A DNA stretch of 64,000 nucleotides from Mycobacteriales bacterium (GCA_038204125.1 JBBRDH010000003.1:7326-71325); one strand, 5' to 3'; positions 51,359-57,682 are shown, counted from the first letter of the stretch. Notes: generated by a model not told the origin, from the sequence alone. A program made the numbers and translations.

Positions 51359-51898
51359 TCAGCTGGCGCGGGATTGCCGCCGCTTGGCCAGTTCGTCCTG
51401 CGCTACCGGCACCACCCGGTCGCCGTCGACCCGCTCCGCGGGAAATTCCGCGAGGGTGCCGGTCATCTCACGCATGGCGCCGCCGACCGCGATCCCGAAA
51501 ACACCCTGTCCGCCTTGCAGCAGGTCGACAATTTCCTCCGGCGAGGTGCACTCGTAGACCGTCGACCCGTCGGAGAACAGCGTGACACCCGCCAGATCCT
51601 CGACGCCCCGGAGCCGCAGGTGGTCGACCGCGACCCGGATGTTGTGCAACGAGACCCCGGTGTCCAGCAGCCGCTTCACGACCTTGAGTACGAGGATGTC
51701 CTTGAACGAATAGAGCCGCTGGGTGCCTGAGCCGGTCGCATCCCGCACCGTCGGCACCACCAGCGAGGTCCGCGCCCAGTAGTCGAGCTGGCGGTAGGTG
51801 ATCCCGGCAGCCTGACAAGCCGTGGTGCCTCGGTAGCCGACATATTCGTCCGGCAACGAAGCGTCCGGGAACAGTGCCCCCTGCTCGCTGCCTCGCAT
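51359..51898 (-). CDS. MerR-family regulator (Rv1830-like)
   Basis: GYRG..AC.AAGITYRQLDYWART, GSGTQRLYSFKDILVLK. Confidence 0.93.
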   Translation of the reverse strand: MRGSEQGALFPDASLPDEYVGYRGTTACQAAGITYRQLDYWARTSLVVPTVRDATGSGTQRLYSFKDILVLKVVKRLLDTGVSLHNIRVAVDHLRLRGVEDLAGVTLFSDGSTVYECTSPEEIVDLLQGGQGVFGIAVGGAMREMTGTLAEFPAERVDGDRVVPVAQDELAKRRQSRAS

Positions 51899-52099
51899 GC
51901 CGCCGCCCTCCTGCCGATGCTGCCCGACGCACTGCCTCGCGGGCCTCGCATGTCCTGCCGCAATCAATCCTGCTGCAATAAGTCCTGCCGTGATGTGAGC
52001 TGCCGTCTCGGGTCCACTTGGACGACGAATGACAAAAGCGCAACTCCTGCTGACGGTAGGCCCGCCACGGTCGGTGGTCAACGTCCGGACCGGGCGTGT

Positions 52100-52124
52100 C
52101 CTCTACCTTCGCTCAAGGTAGAGG
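52100..52124. promoter_or_regulatory. Perfect 10-bp inverted repeat (operator or terminator)
   Basis: CCTCTACCTT-cgctc-AAGGTAGAGG. Confidence 0.6.
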
Positions 52125-52165
52125 CTTGAACGGCCGGAAGCTGACACCCCGGCCCCGCGACTTCC

Positions 52166-52951
52166 TCAGGCGGCTCGGCGGTGGCCCCCCGATCGGCCCG
52201 ATCGGCCGGCCCGGTATCCACCCGACCGACGGCGGGCGGGCCCGGATGTTCCGACCGTCGGGCGATTGCGGGTCAACACGTCGTCGTCGGTCACTACATC
52301 GTCGTCGTCGGTCAGTCGGGCGTGATCCACGCCGGCCGGTAGCGGTTGCCGGGCCGTCCGGTCGACCAGGAACAGCAGCAGCAATCCGATCACGAGGAAG
52401 ATGTGCGTGCCCAACCTGGCGGCGGTGACCTGGCGGGAGGTGATGTCGGTGATCGACACGATGGTCAGGACGAGAACGAAAACCCCCAGTGCGGGCAGGA
52501 ACCCCCGGGCCAGCCGGGGCCACACCGCTGCGGCGAGCAGTCCGATGGCCACCGCGATGTTCCAGGCGGTGCTCTCGTTGAACAGGTGGTCCACGGCGGT
52601 AACCGGCGCCATGGCCATGCCTTCGTGAGCCGACCCGAAGAGCTGCGCCAAGCCCAGCGCCAGCTGCCCGAACCCGACCAGGCCGAGGTCGGCTCGCAGC
52701 AGCGCACCGGCTCGTCCGGGCACCGGCGCGGGGCGGGCGGCCTCGGCGGCCCGCAGGATCGGTCCGCTCAGATCGGCCCCGGCACTGACCTCCCGGACCC
52801 GCAGGCGACGCGTCAGTGCCACAGCCGCGGCGGCCCAGTCCCGGCAGGCCGGACAGTCCTCGACATGGTCGTCGATCTGCCCGGCGGGCAGCAGCGTCAG
52901 CTCGCCGTCCATCCGAGCGGACAACTCTTCCCGGTAGCGGTCGCAGTCCAT
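52166..52951 (-). CDS. zf-HC2 (ZAS-type) membrane anti-sigma factor
   Basis: MDCDRYREELSARMDGE, HVEDCPAC (HxxxCxxC), about four TM segments; divergent from ECF sigma. Confidence 0.85.
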   Translation of the reverse strand: MDCDRYREELSARMDGELTLLPAGQIDDHVEDCPACRDWAAAAVALTRRLRVREVSAGADLSGPILRAAEAARPAPVPGRAGALLRADLGLVGFGQLALGLAQLFGSAHEGMAMAPVTAVDHLFNESTAWNIAVAIGLLAAAVWPRLARGFLPALGVFVLVLTIVSITDITSRQVTAARLGTHIFLVIGLLLLFLVDRTARQPLPAGVDHARLTDDDDVVTDDDVLTRNRPTVGTSGPARRRSGGYRAGRSGRSGGHRRAA

Positions 52952-52959
52952 GGATTGGC

Positions 52960-52987
52960 AGTCGCGCCGGCCACCCTATTAGTTCCC
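52960..52987 (-). promoter_or_regulatory. ECF promoter of the anti-sigma gene
   Basis: GGGAAC-N17-CGACT, 8 nt before the ATG (leaderless geometry). Confidence 0.75.
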
Positions 52988-53075
52988 GGGCGGTTCCCGT
53001 CGTCGGCCGCTTTCCGCCCGGGGTACCCGATTCTGGGTATGACGGCCAGTGACCTGCCCGCCATAGGGTGTTGGG

Positions 53076-53690
53076 GTGGACCAGTCCGGCGGTATCGACG
53101 AGGTCACCCAGCTGGCCCTGGCCGCCCGGTCAGGTGACCCCCGGTCCATCGGCGAATTCATCCGGGCCGCCCAGCGTGACGTGTGGCGGTATCTGGCCTT
53201 TCACGCCGGAGCCGGCGACGCTGACGATCTGACCCAGGAAACCTTCCTACGAGTACTGGGGGCGCTTCCCAGGTTCGAGGGTCGCTCGTCGGCCCGGACC
53301 TGGCTCCTTTCCATCGCCCGACGGGTGTTCGTCGACCACCTGAGGCGTTCCGCTGCCCGCCCGCGCACCATCGGGTCCGACAACTGGGAAGGGGTCGCGG
53401 AAGACCAGTTGCACCGCAGAGCCGCTCCGGCCGCCTTCACCGACCTCGTCGAGATCGACATGCTGCTCGGCGCCCTGCCGGCCGACCGGCGGGAGGCGCT
53501 ACTGCTCACGCAGGTGCTCGGCCTGAGTTATGCAGAGGCCGCCCAGGTCTGCGACTGCCCAGTCGGCACGATTCGCTCCCGGGTGGCCAGAGCCAGAGAC
53601 GACCTGGTCCGTGCAGACCGGCTGCGATCACCGGAGCGGCGGGGCAACCCCAGCTCAGCTCGATCCCTCGGATCGATCGGTTCGCGGTGA
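53076..53690 (+). CDS. ECF RNA polymerase sigma factor, SigC-like
   Basis: FIRAAQRDVWR, ADDLTQETFLR, FEGRSSARTWLLSIAR, CPVGTIRSRVARAR; close to recalled mycobacterial SigC; TAGGGT 6 nt before GTG. Confidence 0.92.
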   Translation: MDQSGGIDEVTQLALAARSGDPRSIGEFIRAAQRDVWRYLAFHAGAGDADDLTQETFLRVLGALPRFEGRSSARTWLLSIARRVFVDHLRRSAARPRTIGSDNWEGVAEDQLHRRAAPAAFTDLVEIDMLLGALPADRREALLLTQVLGLSYAEAAQVCDCPVGTIRSRVARARDDLVRADRLRSPERRGNPSSARSLGSIGSR

Positions 53691-53705
53691 CCCGGCCAAG
53701 TTTCC

Positions 53706-55673
53706 TCAGAAGATGTTGATGCGGACGGTGGTGGTGACGGCGTCGAATTCCGTGGCGCGGACGGCGACGGAGAAGGTCCACAGGCCGGTGCCGGGCAGCA
53801 GCACCTCGTAGGCCTGATACGCCAGCGGTCCGGACGGCCGGAGCGGTATGGGCAGGGGGCCGAGCTGTTGGGCCGGTAGCGAAGCGGTGGCGGTGACCTG
53901 CTCGGGCACCCCACCTCCGTGAATGGTGAGCTTGACGGTGAAGGTCCCGGTGTGGCCGGAAGGGATGACGCTCACCGTCACACTGCGACGGTCGTCAAGC
54001 GTCGCGTCGCCGGATGCCGCGACGAACGTCGCCGAGGCGGCTGGAATGGCGGCGGCGGTCCGGGCCGGCGGCAGCGCGACCAGGACGCCGCTGACCGCCA
54101 GCACAATCGCGGCGAGGATCAGCTCGAACAACACCGAGCGCCGAAGCCCTCTGGTCTGCCCGGATGTTTCGCGATCGAGGTCGCCCGGGAGTTCGAGCAG
54201 ATCAAGGCGGGGGCCGACCGGTTCCACGCCGACATCTACCGGGCCTGGCCCGTCGCGGCCGGCGCCGAGTTCCGCCGCCGGGGTTCGCCCGCCGTTCAGC
54301 ATCAGGGGCGTGTCGACGAACCGACGCTGTACGGCCGACCGGGACACGCTGCCGGCAAGGAGCAGGCCGATGAACAGGGCCACCTTGAGTAGGACCAGCC
54401 GTCCGTATCCGGTGATCAAAAGGGCCACGACGCTGCCGGACTCCCGCCACGCCTGGTAGGTCCCGGTCGCCGCAATGACCACGACACACCCGAACGCGAC
54501 CCGGGAAAAGGTCGGTAGGACCGCCCTCAGTTCGGTCCGATCGGCACGAGGCAGCAACGCCGCCGCAAGGACGACCAGGCCACCGAGCCACGCCGACATC
54601 GCCGTCAGGTGGGCCATATCGCTGGACAACGCCAACCAACCGGGCCGGGCGACCCCGGCGTGGCCACTCGCGGAGATCGTGTACACGACGCCCAGGAACA
54701 GCAACGGACCCAGCCAGACCCGGCGCAACACAGGCCGGAGTTCAGAGGCCGGGCGGTGATCCACCGATGGGGACCACAGCATGATGTCGAGGGCGACACC
54801 CAGTCCTGCCAGCAGGAAGATCCGCGCCAGGTGCAGCCGACCGTACAAGGTGCCCACTGTGTCGGTGAGCAACCCGAACCGCCAGATACCGCCCACTCCG
54901 GTGCCGGCGGCATACGGTCCCTGCAGCAACAATTCCGCCACGGCACCGACGAGGCAGAATATCCAGCCCGTCGACACCAACCGACGCGCCGCCGGGCAGC
55001 GCCGCCCGGCCGGCCAGATGCTCAGCAGCAGCCACCCCCCGCCGAGCAACGCCAGGGCGGCATAGGTGACCGTTCGCGCGATGTCGAAAACTATTCTGGT
55101 GCTGGCTGGATCGACCGGCCCCGACGACGGGGGCAGAGCCGCCAGCGCCCCGTTGCCCACGACGAACCGGAAAGTGCCGTCGATCGGATGCGAATCGGCC
55201 GAGGTGACCCGCCAGCTGACGATGTACGTGCCGTCACCCAGGCCCGGTTTCAATGCAACCGCGACGACCCGGCCCTGCCCGTCGGGATGGGTCACGGCGC
55301 CCGCCCCGACATCCAACCCACGGGCGCTGATCACCCGCAGGTATCCCAGATCGGCACCGACGGGTTCGTCGAAGGTGATGCTGACCTGGGCGGGCGCTTT
55401 CCCCAACCTGGACCCGTCGGTCGGATCGGACGCCGCGACCGTCGCGTGCGCCGACGCCGGGGGGGCCAGCATGACTGCGCCTGCCAGCACACCGACGATC
55501 ACCAGGACCAACGCGGCAACGCGGAGAACCGTGCTCCGAACGGCTGCAAACGCCAATGTGGTCCCGATGTCAGACCACCCGCTTTGCCCTGGAAGAAACC
55601 GCCCTCCCATTGTGTCGTGCCACTGCTGTTTCGCCGATTCTGCGCCGTACAGGCGACGGTGACCTGCGGTCAT
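53706..55673 (-). CDS. CopC-CopD fusion copper uptake/resistance protein
   Basis: ASA|HATV..SDP..G...APAQV.ITFDEPV, WRVTSADSHP CopC; HLAR, GHAG, HLTAMSAWLGGL CopD; ATGA overlap with ycnI stop. Confidence 0.92.
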   Translation of the reverse strand: MTAGHRRLYGAESAKQQWHDTMGGRFLPGQSGWSDIGTTLAFAAVRSTVLRVAALVLVIVGVLAGAVMLAPPASAHATVAASDPTDGSRLGKAPAQVSITFDEPVGADLGYLRVISARGLDVGAGAVTHPDGQGRVVAVALKPGLGDGTYIVSWRVTSADSHPIDGTFRFVVGNGALAALPPSSGPVDPASTRIVFDIARTVTYAALALLGGGWLLLSIWPAGRRCPAARRLVSTGWIFCLVGAVAELLLQGPYAAGTGVGGIWRFGLLTDTVGTLYGRLHLARIFLLAGLGVALDIMLWSPSVDHRPASELRPVLRRVWLGPLLFLGVVYTISASGHAGVARPGWLALSSDMAHLTAMSAWLGGLVVLAAALLPRADRTELRAVLPTFSRVAFGCVVVIAATGTYQAWRESGSVVALLITGYGRLVLLKVALFIGLLLAGSVSRSAVQRRFVDTPLMLNGGRTPAAELGAGRDGPGPVDVGVEPVGPRLDLLELPGDLDRETSGQTRGLRRSVLFELILAAIVLAVSGVLVALPPARTAAAIPAASATFVAASGDATLDDRRSVTVSVIPSGHTGTFTVKLTIHGGGVPEQVTATASLPAQQLGPLPIPLRPSGPLAYQAYEVLLPGTGLWTFSVAVRATEFDAVTTTVRINIF

Positions 55674-56509
55674 CTCGCGGACGACCGTCGCCGGACGGCG
55701 AGCGCCAGCGTCACTCCTGACGCGCCCAGCACCGCTCCGAGGGCTCCGATCACCAACGCCCACGTCACCGATCCCTCGCTCGCCCCGTCGTTCCCGGCTG
55801 AAGCGGCCGGCGCCGCGACGACCGACACGGCCGGGTCGGTGGCCGACGACGCCGACGCCGTGACGGCGGGCGACGACCCGGTCGCGGTGACCGAAGTCAA
55901 GGATTCCGGTGCTGTCGAGGATTCCGGCGCTGACGACGTTCCGGCGGGCGTGTCCGGTGCCGCCGCTGCCAACTTCAGCACCGGCGCGGGATGCTCGGGT
56001 TCGGTTGCGCTGCCAGGGGCGGCCACCTCGATCCAGGCCACCACAGATTTGTCGCTGTAGGTCTGCACCGCCTTGAACGTCAGCGTGGATTCACCGTCCG
56101 GAAGTTTGCCGCCGATGATGGTGAACTCGCCGAAGAAGCCGGGCTTGATATCGGAGTTCGCATCCGCGGTCCAGTCGACCTCCGACACCACCTCGGTGAT
56201 CTCGCCGTCGTCTGTCTTGATTGGCGCGGCCAGTTTCATGGTGATGATCTTCGCGGTCCAACCCGGCAGCGGCGCGACCAGCACACCCGCGATCGGATGG
56301 GCCGTCGGCAGCTGAACCTTGAACCCGACGGTGCTTGCCGAAGCGCTCTCATCCGGTACCCGGAACGTGATGGCCGCATCACTCGCCCCCACTGTCACCC
56401 CGGGCGCAGCGACCGTGACATGCGCCGATGCCACACCGGCCCCGAGCAGGACCAGCCCAACCGTCAGCCCGAAGATGCTCACGACCCTGCCCGCACCCGT
56501 TCTTGCCAC
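55670..56509 (-). CDS. YcnI-family copper-binding membrane protein (DUF1775)
   Basis: ASA|HVTV, ITFRVPDES, FKAVQTYSD...V.WIE, EHPAPVL, C-terminal TM; AAGGAG RBS. Confidence 0.92.
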   Translation of the reverse strand: MARTGAGRVVSIFGLTVGLVLLGAGVASAHVTVAAPGVTVGASDAAITFRVPDESASASTVGFKVQLPTAHPIAGVLVAPLPGWTAKIITMKLAAPIKTDDGEITEVVSEVDWTADANSDIKPGFFGEFTIIGGKLPDGESTLTFKAVQTYSDKSVVAWIEVAAPGSATEPEHPAPVLKLAAAAPDTPAGTSSAPESSTAPESLTSVTATGSSPAVTASASSATDPAVSVVAAPAASAGNDGASEGSVTWALVIGALGAVLGASGVTLALAVRRRSSAR

Positions 56510-56559
56510 TGACAACTCCTTCACCCCCAGGACCGATTGATCCGGCCCGACGAATGGGT

Positions 56560-56587
56560 AGTCGCAGCGGACGGCACCTGAGTTCCA
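56560..56587 (-). promoter_or_regulatory. ECF promoter of ycnI-copCD
   Basis: TGGAAC-N17-CGACT, same motif and spacing as at 52960-52987. Confidence 0.75.
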
Positions 56588-56773
56588 GGTGGAGGTGCCC
56601 ACGCGTCGGCGCCGGAGCCTGCGGGCCCGCAACATGACAAAACTGTCATGTTGGCGTGTCCCACCCGGCCAACTGTGATGCCGGTGATAGCCAATGAGTG
56701 CCCCGGGGCGACTGGTTCGTCGTCGTCCCACGGTGCCCGTGGTCGGACGGCGCAGTTCGATCTCTGCGCTTGA

Positions 56774-57682
56774 CTATGCCCAGGGGATGGGGAGTTCGCC
56801 GAGCGCCACCAGGCTGCCAGCGAGTCGTCGACTGCCGACGACGCTGATTCCGCACCCGAGCTTGGCTACTACCGGGAGGCCGGCCGAGTCGATCGAGGCA
56901 CCGGAGTTGTCGGTAGTCCGCACCTCGACAGCCAGTGCGCCTTTAGCCGTGACATCGGGCAGGGTGGTCAGTCGGTGAGCCACCTGCACACAGGTTCGTT
57001 CAAGTTCGTCGCGGGAGACATGACCGTCACCCATGCCGGACGCGAGGACCTGGAACTCATGCGGCGATGAACACATCGATACGTAGCCGGTCGTCCAGTC
57101 ACGGCCGGAACCGCAAGATCCCAACAGCTCTCGCTCATTTCCGGTGGACAACGCATTGCGAAGCGAGCCGTCGTAACGCGCGACCGCCGTCTGAGCCGGA
57201 TCAGCTGGGATGAACATGGCGCAGGCGAGCCAATGCTGCCCCACCGCCTGTTGCAGCGGTGCTGGACTGAACAGCGCCGAGAACGCATAGATTCTGGGGG
57301 ACCAGTACTGGAACAGCGGGACGGCCCCGACGTAGCTTGATCCTGCGTCGAGACAAGCACCGGGGTTGGGATCGCCGACCGACCGACCGGTGTTGCTTCC
57401 CGTGGTCGCCGGAGCCTGGGCCGGATTGGCGAGGACGGCGACAACTTCGCCGAACCGAAATCGGTCGCAAGATTTGAACTGCAGCTGAGGATAGATGTAG
57501 TCGCCAGTCTCCCAGTTCACTGGGTTCACCGGGTCAGGGACACAGTCACCCACGGTCGGCGGACCAGGCACCGATAGGGCCTGTGGCAACCCGGCGACCC
57601 GACGTGGCTCGAGCCCCGCGAACACCAGGACCACCAGCACCGCAACAGCGAGGAGCAGCACGCCCAGCTGTCGGCGTTCCAC
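56774..57682 (-). CDS. Septum-formation-family-like protein, paralog 3
   Basis: TM, GPPTVGDCV, C...FGEVVAV, GQHWLAC, GSLRNA, CSSPHEFQ, GSLVALGELPIPW. Confidence 0.7.
   Translation of the reverse strand: MERRQLGVLLLAVAVLVVLVFAGLEPRRVAGLPQALSVPGPPTVGDCVPDPVNPVNWETGDYIYPQLQFKSCDRFRFGEVVAVLANPAQAPATTGSNTGRSVGDPNPGACLDAGSSYVGAVPLFQYWSPRIYAFSALFSPAPLQQAVGQHWLACAMFIPADPAQTAVARYDGSLRNALSTGNERELLGSCGSGRDWTTGYVSMCSSPHEFQVLASGMGDGHVSRDELERTCVQVAHRLTTLPDVTAKGALAVEVRTTDNSGASIDSAGLPVVAKLGCGISVVGSRRLAGSLVALGELPIPWA

Follow-up and report, generated by a model that had tools for sequence, protein, structure and literature searches.

We describe here a small regulatory locus within a 64,000-nucleotide stretch of DNA from a Mycobacteriales bacterium (GCA_038204125.1, JBBRDH010000003.1:7326-71325). 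The whole stretch is referred to as the window, and positions without a locus number are counted from its first letter. The locus comprises a sigma factor gene, a divergently oriented gene for a putative anti-sigma factor, a copper operon and two promoter motifs which resemble the promoters of the sigma factor SigC. The sigma gene (53076-53690, plus strand) starts with GTG and codes for a SigC-like extracytoplasmic function (ECF) sigma factor of 204 amino acids with regions 2 and 4 only (Pfam Sigma70_r2 and r4_2). On the other side of a divergent region of 124 bp, the anti-sigma gene (52166-52951, minus strand) starts with ATG and encodes a protein of 261 amino acids with an N-terminal zf-HC2/ZAS domain, four predicted transmembrane helices and a disordered tail. 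The copper operon lies on the minus strand as well. Its first gene, ycnI (55670-56512, GTG start), encodes a YcnI/DUF1775 copper-binding protein of 280 amino acids (Pfam DUF1775, E 2e-41). The second gene (53706-55610) encodes a CopC-CopD fusion, that is, a YcnJ-like copper importer (Pfam CopC, E 1e-21; CopD, E 4e-13), and its start is uncertain, with ATG at 55610 or TTG at 55556 as candidates. Together the DUF1775 protein and the CopC-CopD membrane protein make up a copper acquisition pair of the YcnI/YcnJ type. No SigC-type motif or terminator-like site was found between ycnI and copCD.

An earlier reading of the sequence alone (the sequence-only reading) had proposed that the anti-sigma gene and ycnI share a promoter motif, and both copies were found at the expected places. 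The first one (52960-52987, minus strand) is made up of the -35 element GGGAACT at 52987-52981 and the -10 element CGACT at 52964-52960; extended by one letter to GGGAACT-N16-CGACTG, the promoter spans 52987-52959. The minus strand from 52986 to 52960 reads GGAACTAATAGGGTGGCCGGCGCGACT, with one G directly before, and a spacer of 8 nt, GCCAATCC, leads from CGACT to the ATG at 52951, exactly as had been claimed. The second copy, the SigC-type promoter of ycnI-copCD (56559-56587, minus strand), has TGGAACT at 56587-56581 and CGACTA at 56564-56559. Here the minus strand from 56586 to 56560 reads GGAACTCAGGTGCCGTCCGCTGCGACT, with a T directly before and an A directly after. The distance to the GTG of ycnI at 56512, given as about 50 nt in the sequence-only reading, measures 47 nt from CGACT, and ycnI has the ribosome-binding site GAAGGAG. 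In both promoters the -10 element (CGACTG and CGACTA) stands 17 nt after GGAAC. The 5′ untranslated region of ycnI-copCD is predicted to be about 40 nt long. The anti-sigma mRNA is predicted to be leaderless, because in related loci the start codon is kept at 6-10 nt (mode 8) after CGACN. There is no purine-rich Shine-Dalgarno sequence before the anti-sigma gene or the sigma gene, and the distances from the -10 element to the start are 8 nt and 6 nt, respectively. An Rfam scan of 51500-57500 gave no credible match. As a separate observation, a second GGGAAC (52994-52999, minus strand) precedes the GGGAAC of the anti-sigma -35 element by 13 nt. An additional upstream GGAAC is likewise present in two related loci (L022 and L006), but its spacing is not conserved.

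Could both motifs be chance matches in GC-rich DNA which do not act as promoters? The bare pattern is indeed not significant, as GGAAC-N16-18-CGACT occurs twice in the window where 0.65 matches are expected, and two or more were reached in 12 of 100 shuffles. Genome-wide, the spacing N17 (17 matches) is not enriched above the other spacings (9-18 matches). Since the bare pattern is too weak, we relied on a position weight matrix and on a comparative analysis; the significance of the two sites comes from their position and their conservation. For the comparison 27 related sigma loci with 44-66% identity were used, from Mycobacteriales metagenome-assembled genomes, Amycolatopsis, Micromonospora, Phytohabitans, Jatrophihabitans, Pseudonocardia and Acidimicrobiia, and these were supplemented by 19 loci of genomes belonging to the same order. 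Conservation was counted over the 36 non-redundant loci which carry a homolog of the anti-sigma factor. In 34 of these GGAAC-N17-CGACN is found directly upstream of the anti-sigma gene (one has N16, so that N17 is kept in 33 of the 34). In 33 loci CGACN is separated by 6-10 nt from an ATG or GTG, with 8 nt in 21 and 9 nt in 8 of them. These loci span Mycobacteriales, Pseudonocardiales, Micromonosporales and Acidimicrobiia, and the conservation of a fixed distance to the start over four lineages effectively refutes a coincidence, whose probability we regard as negligible.

The weight matrix was derived from 33 anti-sigma promoters of other genomes, none of them from the window, and was run over the 11.07 million positions of the bacterium's own 5.5-Mb draft genome. 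It places the ycnI site 3rd and the anti-sigma site 4th. Ranks 1, 2 and 5 fall inside long open reading frames; with the two top ranks being intragenic, the sites of the window are the two best intergenic matches of the genome. They are no more than 3.6 kb away from the sigma gene, and each is correctly oriented upstream of a gene. A genome-wide motif scan had been proposed as a check in the sequence-only reading.

The sequence-only reading had taken the motif for the SigC consensus, and this agrees with the experimental consensus of Corynebacterium glutamicum sigma-C, which is given as -35 GGGAACT and -10 CGACTA by Toyoda & Inui 2016 as quoted by Dostalova et al. 2017 (PMC5483222). The -35 element of the anti-sigma promoter is identical to this consensus, and that of ycnI is TGGAACT. 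The sigma factor of the window fits as well. Its best matches in the PDB are the domains of Mycobacterium tuberculosis SigC, namely 2o7g for sigma-2 (E 1e-31) and 2o8x for sigma-4 (E 2e-20), and the identity to these domains is about 60-68%, judged by eye from the alignments. The NCBIfam SigC model PRK09649 scores 217 bits and the other named ECF models at most 88 bits. We therefore regard the sigma factor as SigC-like and presumably of an ECF36-like type.

Genuine ECF-type promoters might still be read by another ECF sigma factor of the same genome. The -35 sequence GGAAC is common to many ECF groups, and the sigma-H promoters of C. glutamicum contain GGAA as well (PMC5483222). The -10 element CGACT(A), however, is specific to sigma-C, and the promoter class is described as being recognized by sigma-C only; one member, Pcg2556, has been confirmed by in vitro transcription and a two-plasmid assay (PMC5483222). 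Moreover, in all lineages examined the motif occurs together with the sigma/anti-sigma pair, and where the pair is lacking no such motif precedes ycnI. In a set of 29 YcnI loci of related genomes, a SigC-type promoter is tied to ycnI in 8 of the 11 genomes with the anti-sigma gene and in 0 of the 18 without it (Fisher p ~4e-5 by our own arithmetic), where we counted ycnI as tied if the motif precedes it directly or via an operon led by the anti-sigma gene. Given this, and the similarity of both sigma domains to M. tuberculosis SigC, we consider a different sigma factor very improbable. The co-occurrence and the fixed distance in 34 of 36 loci thus argue for the view that the shared motif is the promoter of the adjacent SigC-like sigma factor.

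The genes which are preceded by the motif in related loci point to a common theme. They encode CopC-CopD, YcnI, PCuAC, SCO1, MauE/DoxX-thioredoxin, PepSY_TM and CopD-Caa3_CtaG proteins. The motif stands directly before ycnI in three loci (L013, L089 and L094), before PepSY_TM proteins of the cg2556 family in four (L002, L004, L009 and L012) and before a CopD-Caa3_CtaG fusion of the CtiP type in L004. Because all motif-preceded genes handle copper or assemble cytochrome oxidase, the regulon appears to serve copper capture and the metallation of cytochrome oxidase. The common layout in the order (L138) runs from the sigma gene over the divergent SigC-type promoter to the anti-sigma gene, copC-copD, ycnI, PCuAC, SCO1 and MauE-thioredoxin, and many genomes of the order show a linkage of ycnI with the anti-sigma gene. 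A further SigC-type promoter is often found just downstream of the sigma gene in the relatives, before MauE/DoxX or PCuAC. Compared with this layout, the operon of the window has been rearranged, with the anti-sigma gene alone and ycnI-copCD under its own copy of the promoter. Copper as the inducing signal would fit with the response of sigma-C to copper deprivation in C. glutamicum (PMC7337898; PMC9145763) and of SigC in M. tuberculosis (PMC7924339).

The sigma gene itself is not preceded by a CGACT-type motif. Instead, as the sequence-only reading had noticed, a -10-like hexamer of the form TANNNT, TAGGGT (53064-53069, plus strand), lies 6 nt before the GTG at 53076. The TAG of this hexamer is an in-frame stop, and for this reason the sigma reading frame cannot begin further upstream. 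Among the 36 relatives about 20 have TANNNT 6-8 nt before the assigned sigma start (e.g., TAGGGT, TAGGCT, TAGGAT, TAAGGT), while we estimate a chance rate of about 1% at that place for such a composition; most of the others have a Shine-Dalgarno leader instead, as do about 40% of all relatives. A canonical sigma-70 promoter with -35 and -10 elements was not found before the sigma gene, where only the -10-like TANNNT and no -35 hexamer can be recognized. A missing -35 hexamer is usual in actinobacterial housekeeping promoters. The promoter of the sigma gene thus fits the housekeeping type, as had been supposed in the sequence-only reading, and is probably mostly leaderless across the relatives. 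A SigC-type motif before the sigma gene is not present in the window, and among the related loci a possible one was seen only in L025. As the sigma gene has TANNNT and no SigC-type motif, it appears not to be autoregulated, while the anti-sigma gene would depend on the sigma factor. It follows from these two promoters that the design should be one of pure negative feedback, an assumption of the sequence-only reading for which there is an experimental precedent in sigH-rshA of C. glutamicum (PMC3489674).

It is possible, although in our view the less probable case, that the TANNNT promoter is in turn under the control of a repressor, of an activator or of a different sigma factor, so that induction would be partly transcriptional and the anti-sigma loop not the sole control. 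HrrA represses sigC in C. glutamicum (PMC7337898), and SigK and SigF influence sigC in M. tuberculosis (PMC4821874). The lack of a recognizable -35 element and the relatives which have Shine-Dalgarno leaders and not the leaderless layout would also agree with such a regulation. Yet a search of the 124-bp divergent region, which was not exhaustive, gave no conserved operator-like repeat, and a conserved -10 element at a leaderless distance is the typical architecture of actinobacterial sigma-A promoters. Regulation of this kind modifies the feedback model and does not replace it.

The divergently encoded protein has the features of an anti-sigma factor. Its zf-HC2 domain is recognized by Pfam PF13490 (E 1.7e-7, 31.6 bits vs. 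a cut-off of 22.2). The H-x3-C-x2-C signature is present together with an upstream Cys, and H29, C33 and C36 are invariant in 18 homologs. Homologs adjoin SigC-like sigma genes in 36 loci. The AlphaFold2 model (mean predicted local distance difference test score 76) has helices at residues 80-106, 118-143, 145-171 and 177-200, and the tail is disordered from about residue 209. In the literature Rv0093c has been called a putative anti-SigC, rscA (PMC6917791), and fusions of the sigC-Rv0093c type are reported in members of the M. avium complex (PMC7563442). An ECF review states that only some ECF36 members are without an anti-sigma factor. The pairing of sigma and anti-sigma factor is therefore, so far, one that is anticipated by bioinformatics.

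Alternatively, the zf-HC2 membrane protein could be a mere member of the regulon, for example with a function in copper handling at the membrane, and the sigma factor could be under intramolecular conformational control. This is the mode of control that has been put forward for SigC of M. tuberculosis (PMC8999054); moreover, according to a paper of 2021 no anti-SigC was known from experiment (PMC7924339), and the mycobacterial homolog is not encoded beside sigC. This explanation has to cope with the invariance of the anti-sigma-domain signature, with the adjacency to the sigma gene in 36 loci and with the reported fusions of SigC to an Rv0093c-type protein, and we judge it improbable.

We suggest that the circuit operates in the following steps. 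The sigma gene would be transcribed from its ordinary TANNNT promoter as a leaderless mRNA and without autoregulation. The sigma protein would then be held by the divergently encoded zinc-finger anti-sigma factor with its four transmembrane helices. Once released, the sigma factor could guide the RNA polymerase to the two GGGAACT-N16-CGACT(A) promoters. The anti-sigma promoter should fire at or beside the A of the ATG and give rise to a leaderless anti-sigma mRNA, and the newly made anti-sigma factor could sequester the sigma factor again and shut down the response, which would be the negative-feedback arm. The second promoter would drive ycnI-copCD from a start about 40 nt upstream of ycnI and thereby supply the YcnI/YcnJ-like copper acquisition pair. 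Of this circuit, the start sites, the dependence on the sigma factor, the sigma/anti-sigma binding and copper as the signal are inferred.

Taking all together, the observation of the sequence-only reading is confirmed and, within the reach of sequence analysis, its interpretation is supported. We propose that both motifs are conserved promoters of a SigC-type copper-starvation sigma factor, which with its feedback on the anti-sigma factor would form a self-contained switch. We put the probability of this interpretation at roughly 85%. Several points weigh against it. The sigma factor falls 2 bits short of the cut-off (219 bits) of the NCBI SigC equivalog model, and GGAAC-N17-CGACT has no genome-wide excess. 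What points to a binding of the sigma factor by the anti-sigma factor is the adjacency of the genes and the published fusions. A TANNNT element is no proof of constitutive expression, and HrrA on the one hand and SigK and SigF on the other act on sigC in the two studied species. Finally, there are no further convincing intergenic sites in the draft genome, and the regulon appears to be limited to two units. Fifteen of the higher-scoring matrix hits outside of the locus were inspected and none is convincingly upstream of a copper-related gene. No motif was found upstream of the CtaG-like gene (C38) and the MauE-like gene (C84) of the genome, a PepSY_TM or PCuAC homolog was not detected in the draft genome with the queries used, and no target of the cydABDC type was found in it.

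The promoter finding is confirmatory and not surprising. Published precedents exist for the class of promoter, for the sigma family, for copper as the theme and for the logic of the feedback. The circuit is known in outline from Corynebacterium and Mycobacterium, and the present locus is a compact and clean example of it. The sigma-C regulon of C. glutamicum has, like the window, promoters with -35 GGGAACT and -10 CGACTA and the same kinds of targets, that is, the PepSY_TM protein cg2556, CopC, PCuAC and the CopD-CtaG fusion CtiP. It is induced by copper deprivation or by a defect of the aa3 oxidase, and by analogy copper would be the signal for the system of the window. In the literature covered, no anti-sigma-C gene beside sigC is described for C. 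glutamicum, whereas the window has a divergent gene for a ZAS protein with four transmembrane helices, which is the best-conserved target and has a predicted leaderless mRNA.

M. tuberculosis SigC (ECF36) has a role in copper acquisition, as is proposed for the sigma factor of the window, with which it shares about 60-68% domain identity as estimated by eye. There sigC is monocistronic, the putative anti-sigma gene is located elsewhere on the chromosome and the control has been proposed to be conformational; in the window the two genes are neighbors and a promoter connects them in one circuit. A zf-HC2 membrane homolog from Mycobacteriaceae (P0015) is encoded next to genes for a DUF5134-PepSY_TM protein, a CtaG-domain protein and a P-type ATPase, and the PepSY_TM gene has a SigC-like promoter. 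The homology between Rv0093c and the protein of the window is deduced via P0015 and the literature.

The same logic is realized in sigH-rshA of C. glutamicum (Busche et al. 2012, PMC3489674), in which the sigma gene is transcribed from housekeeping promoters and the ZAS anti-sigma gene has its own promoter dependent on the cognate sigma factor, which serves a fast shutdown of the response. This pair differs in that the sigma factor belongs to ECF12, the anti-sigma factor is soluble and redox-sensing, and rshA is also cotranscribed with sigH. In the window the genes are divergent and the anti-sigma gene therefore should depend wholly on its own promoter. The ycnKJI operon of Bacillus subtilis, which is induced when copper is limiting, also combines YcnI (DUF1775) with a YcnJ-like CopC-CopD importer, but its regulators are the repressor YcnK and CsoR instead of an ECF sigma/anti-sigma pair.

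Copper acquisition and virulence of M. tuberculosis depend on SigC, and in C. glutamicum the response of the respiratory chain and to copper is under its control. The locus of the window and its about 36 relatives present a simple and readable circuit with a plain sigma promoter, a ZAS anti-sigma factor as the most conserved target and a small copper/oxidase regulon. The promoter model GGGAACY-N16-CGACT(A), in which a leaderless start follows after 8 nt, could be used for regulon prediction across Actinomycetota, and the locus offers a tractable candidate for the sensor.

The newer and more interesting lead is the anti-sigma family, whose members may sense copper directly and carry a degron of their own. 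H122, E126, W130, D169 and H183 (about 52586-52403, minus strand) are invariant or nearly so. Given a cytoplasmic N-terminal domain, H122, E126, D169 and H183 are predicted to lie at the outer ends of transmembrane helices 2 to 4, and these conserved polar residues could form a metal-binding site. They are next to the first outer loop, which varies in sequence and contains many His and Met residues. At the C-terminus, 16 of the 18 database homologs (P0001-P0018) end in Ala-Ala (e.g., ...GRRAA, ...DGNAA), compared with 1.4% of the long open reading frames of the genome. In the window the Ala-Ala is encoded at 52166-52171, and the preceding tail is disordered and variable. This end of the full-length anti-sigma factor looks like a degron of the ClpXP type.

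One may therefore speculate that the ZAS protein with four transmembrane helices is both the long-missing anti-SigC and the copper sensor. The residues H122, E126, D169 and H183 and the His/Met-rich outer loop would bind copper. Upon copper loss the protein would become exposed to ClpXP via its cytoplasmic C-terminal Ala-Ala and the sigma factor would be freed, and the sigma-dependent leaderless anti-sigma mRNA would quickly rebuild the pool of the inhibitor. We regard this extended proposal as tentative and, as a whole, rather doubtful. If true, it would explain how SigC-type factors, that of M. tuberculosis included, sense copper shortage.

Downstream of the anti-sigma gene, 42 nt after its stop codon, we find a perfect 10-bp hairpin (52100-52124, minus strand) with the stem CCUCUACCUU/AAGGUAGAGG and no U-tract. 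Its fold energy is -27.3 kcal/mol (z = -4.5), and an equal stability was reached in 0 of 200 shuffles. The hairpin is a probable terminator, and as such it would make the anti-sigma gene monocistronic in the genome of the window. The next gene on the minus strand (51359-52081) encodes a MerR-family regulator. The helix-turn-helix begins only at residue 83 of the longest open reading frame, and for this reason the real start is probably later. We considered this gene as a part of the system and rejected it, because it is conserved in 0 of 46 related loci and the strong hairpin separates it from the anti-sigma gene.

At the other end of the locus, directly upstream of the ycnI promoter, a gene (56774-57682, minus strand) encodes a Cys-containing, membrane-anchored protein of 302 amino acids which has no match in Pfam or NCBIfam and for which the related loci contain no homolog. 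The sigma gene and copCD run towards each other, and only 15 nt (53691-53705), without a terminator-like structure, separate the two stop codons; the transcripts may overlap as antisense pairs.

Two Amycolatopsis loci (L002 at ~8161 and L004 at ~8168, minus strand) encode a small Cys-rich protein with the sequence ..TTFCGNCDCGCPELFLD.. and without a Pfam match. A SigC-type promoter with a high score (21-26 bits) stands before the gene, and the protein may be an uncharacterized member of the copper regulon. Another small Cys-rich open reading frame without a Pfam hit, at L152:6431-6745, is also preceded by the motif.

Within the same GTDB genus only 6 of 37 genomes have the anti-sigma/sigma module, but it occurs in 15 of 23 genera of the order. 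From this distribution the module seems to be old but patchily retained, which suggests frequent loss or transfer. In a locus from Mycobacteriaceae (L081; 5889-6000 and 8749-8780) CGACTA is retained at 8-9 nt from the GTG of the anti-sigma homolog, but the -35 element is degenerate, and the neighboring PepSY_TM-DUF5134 operon has AGGAACT-N15-CGACC near its start.

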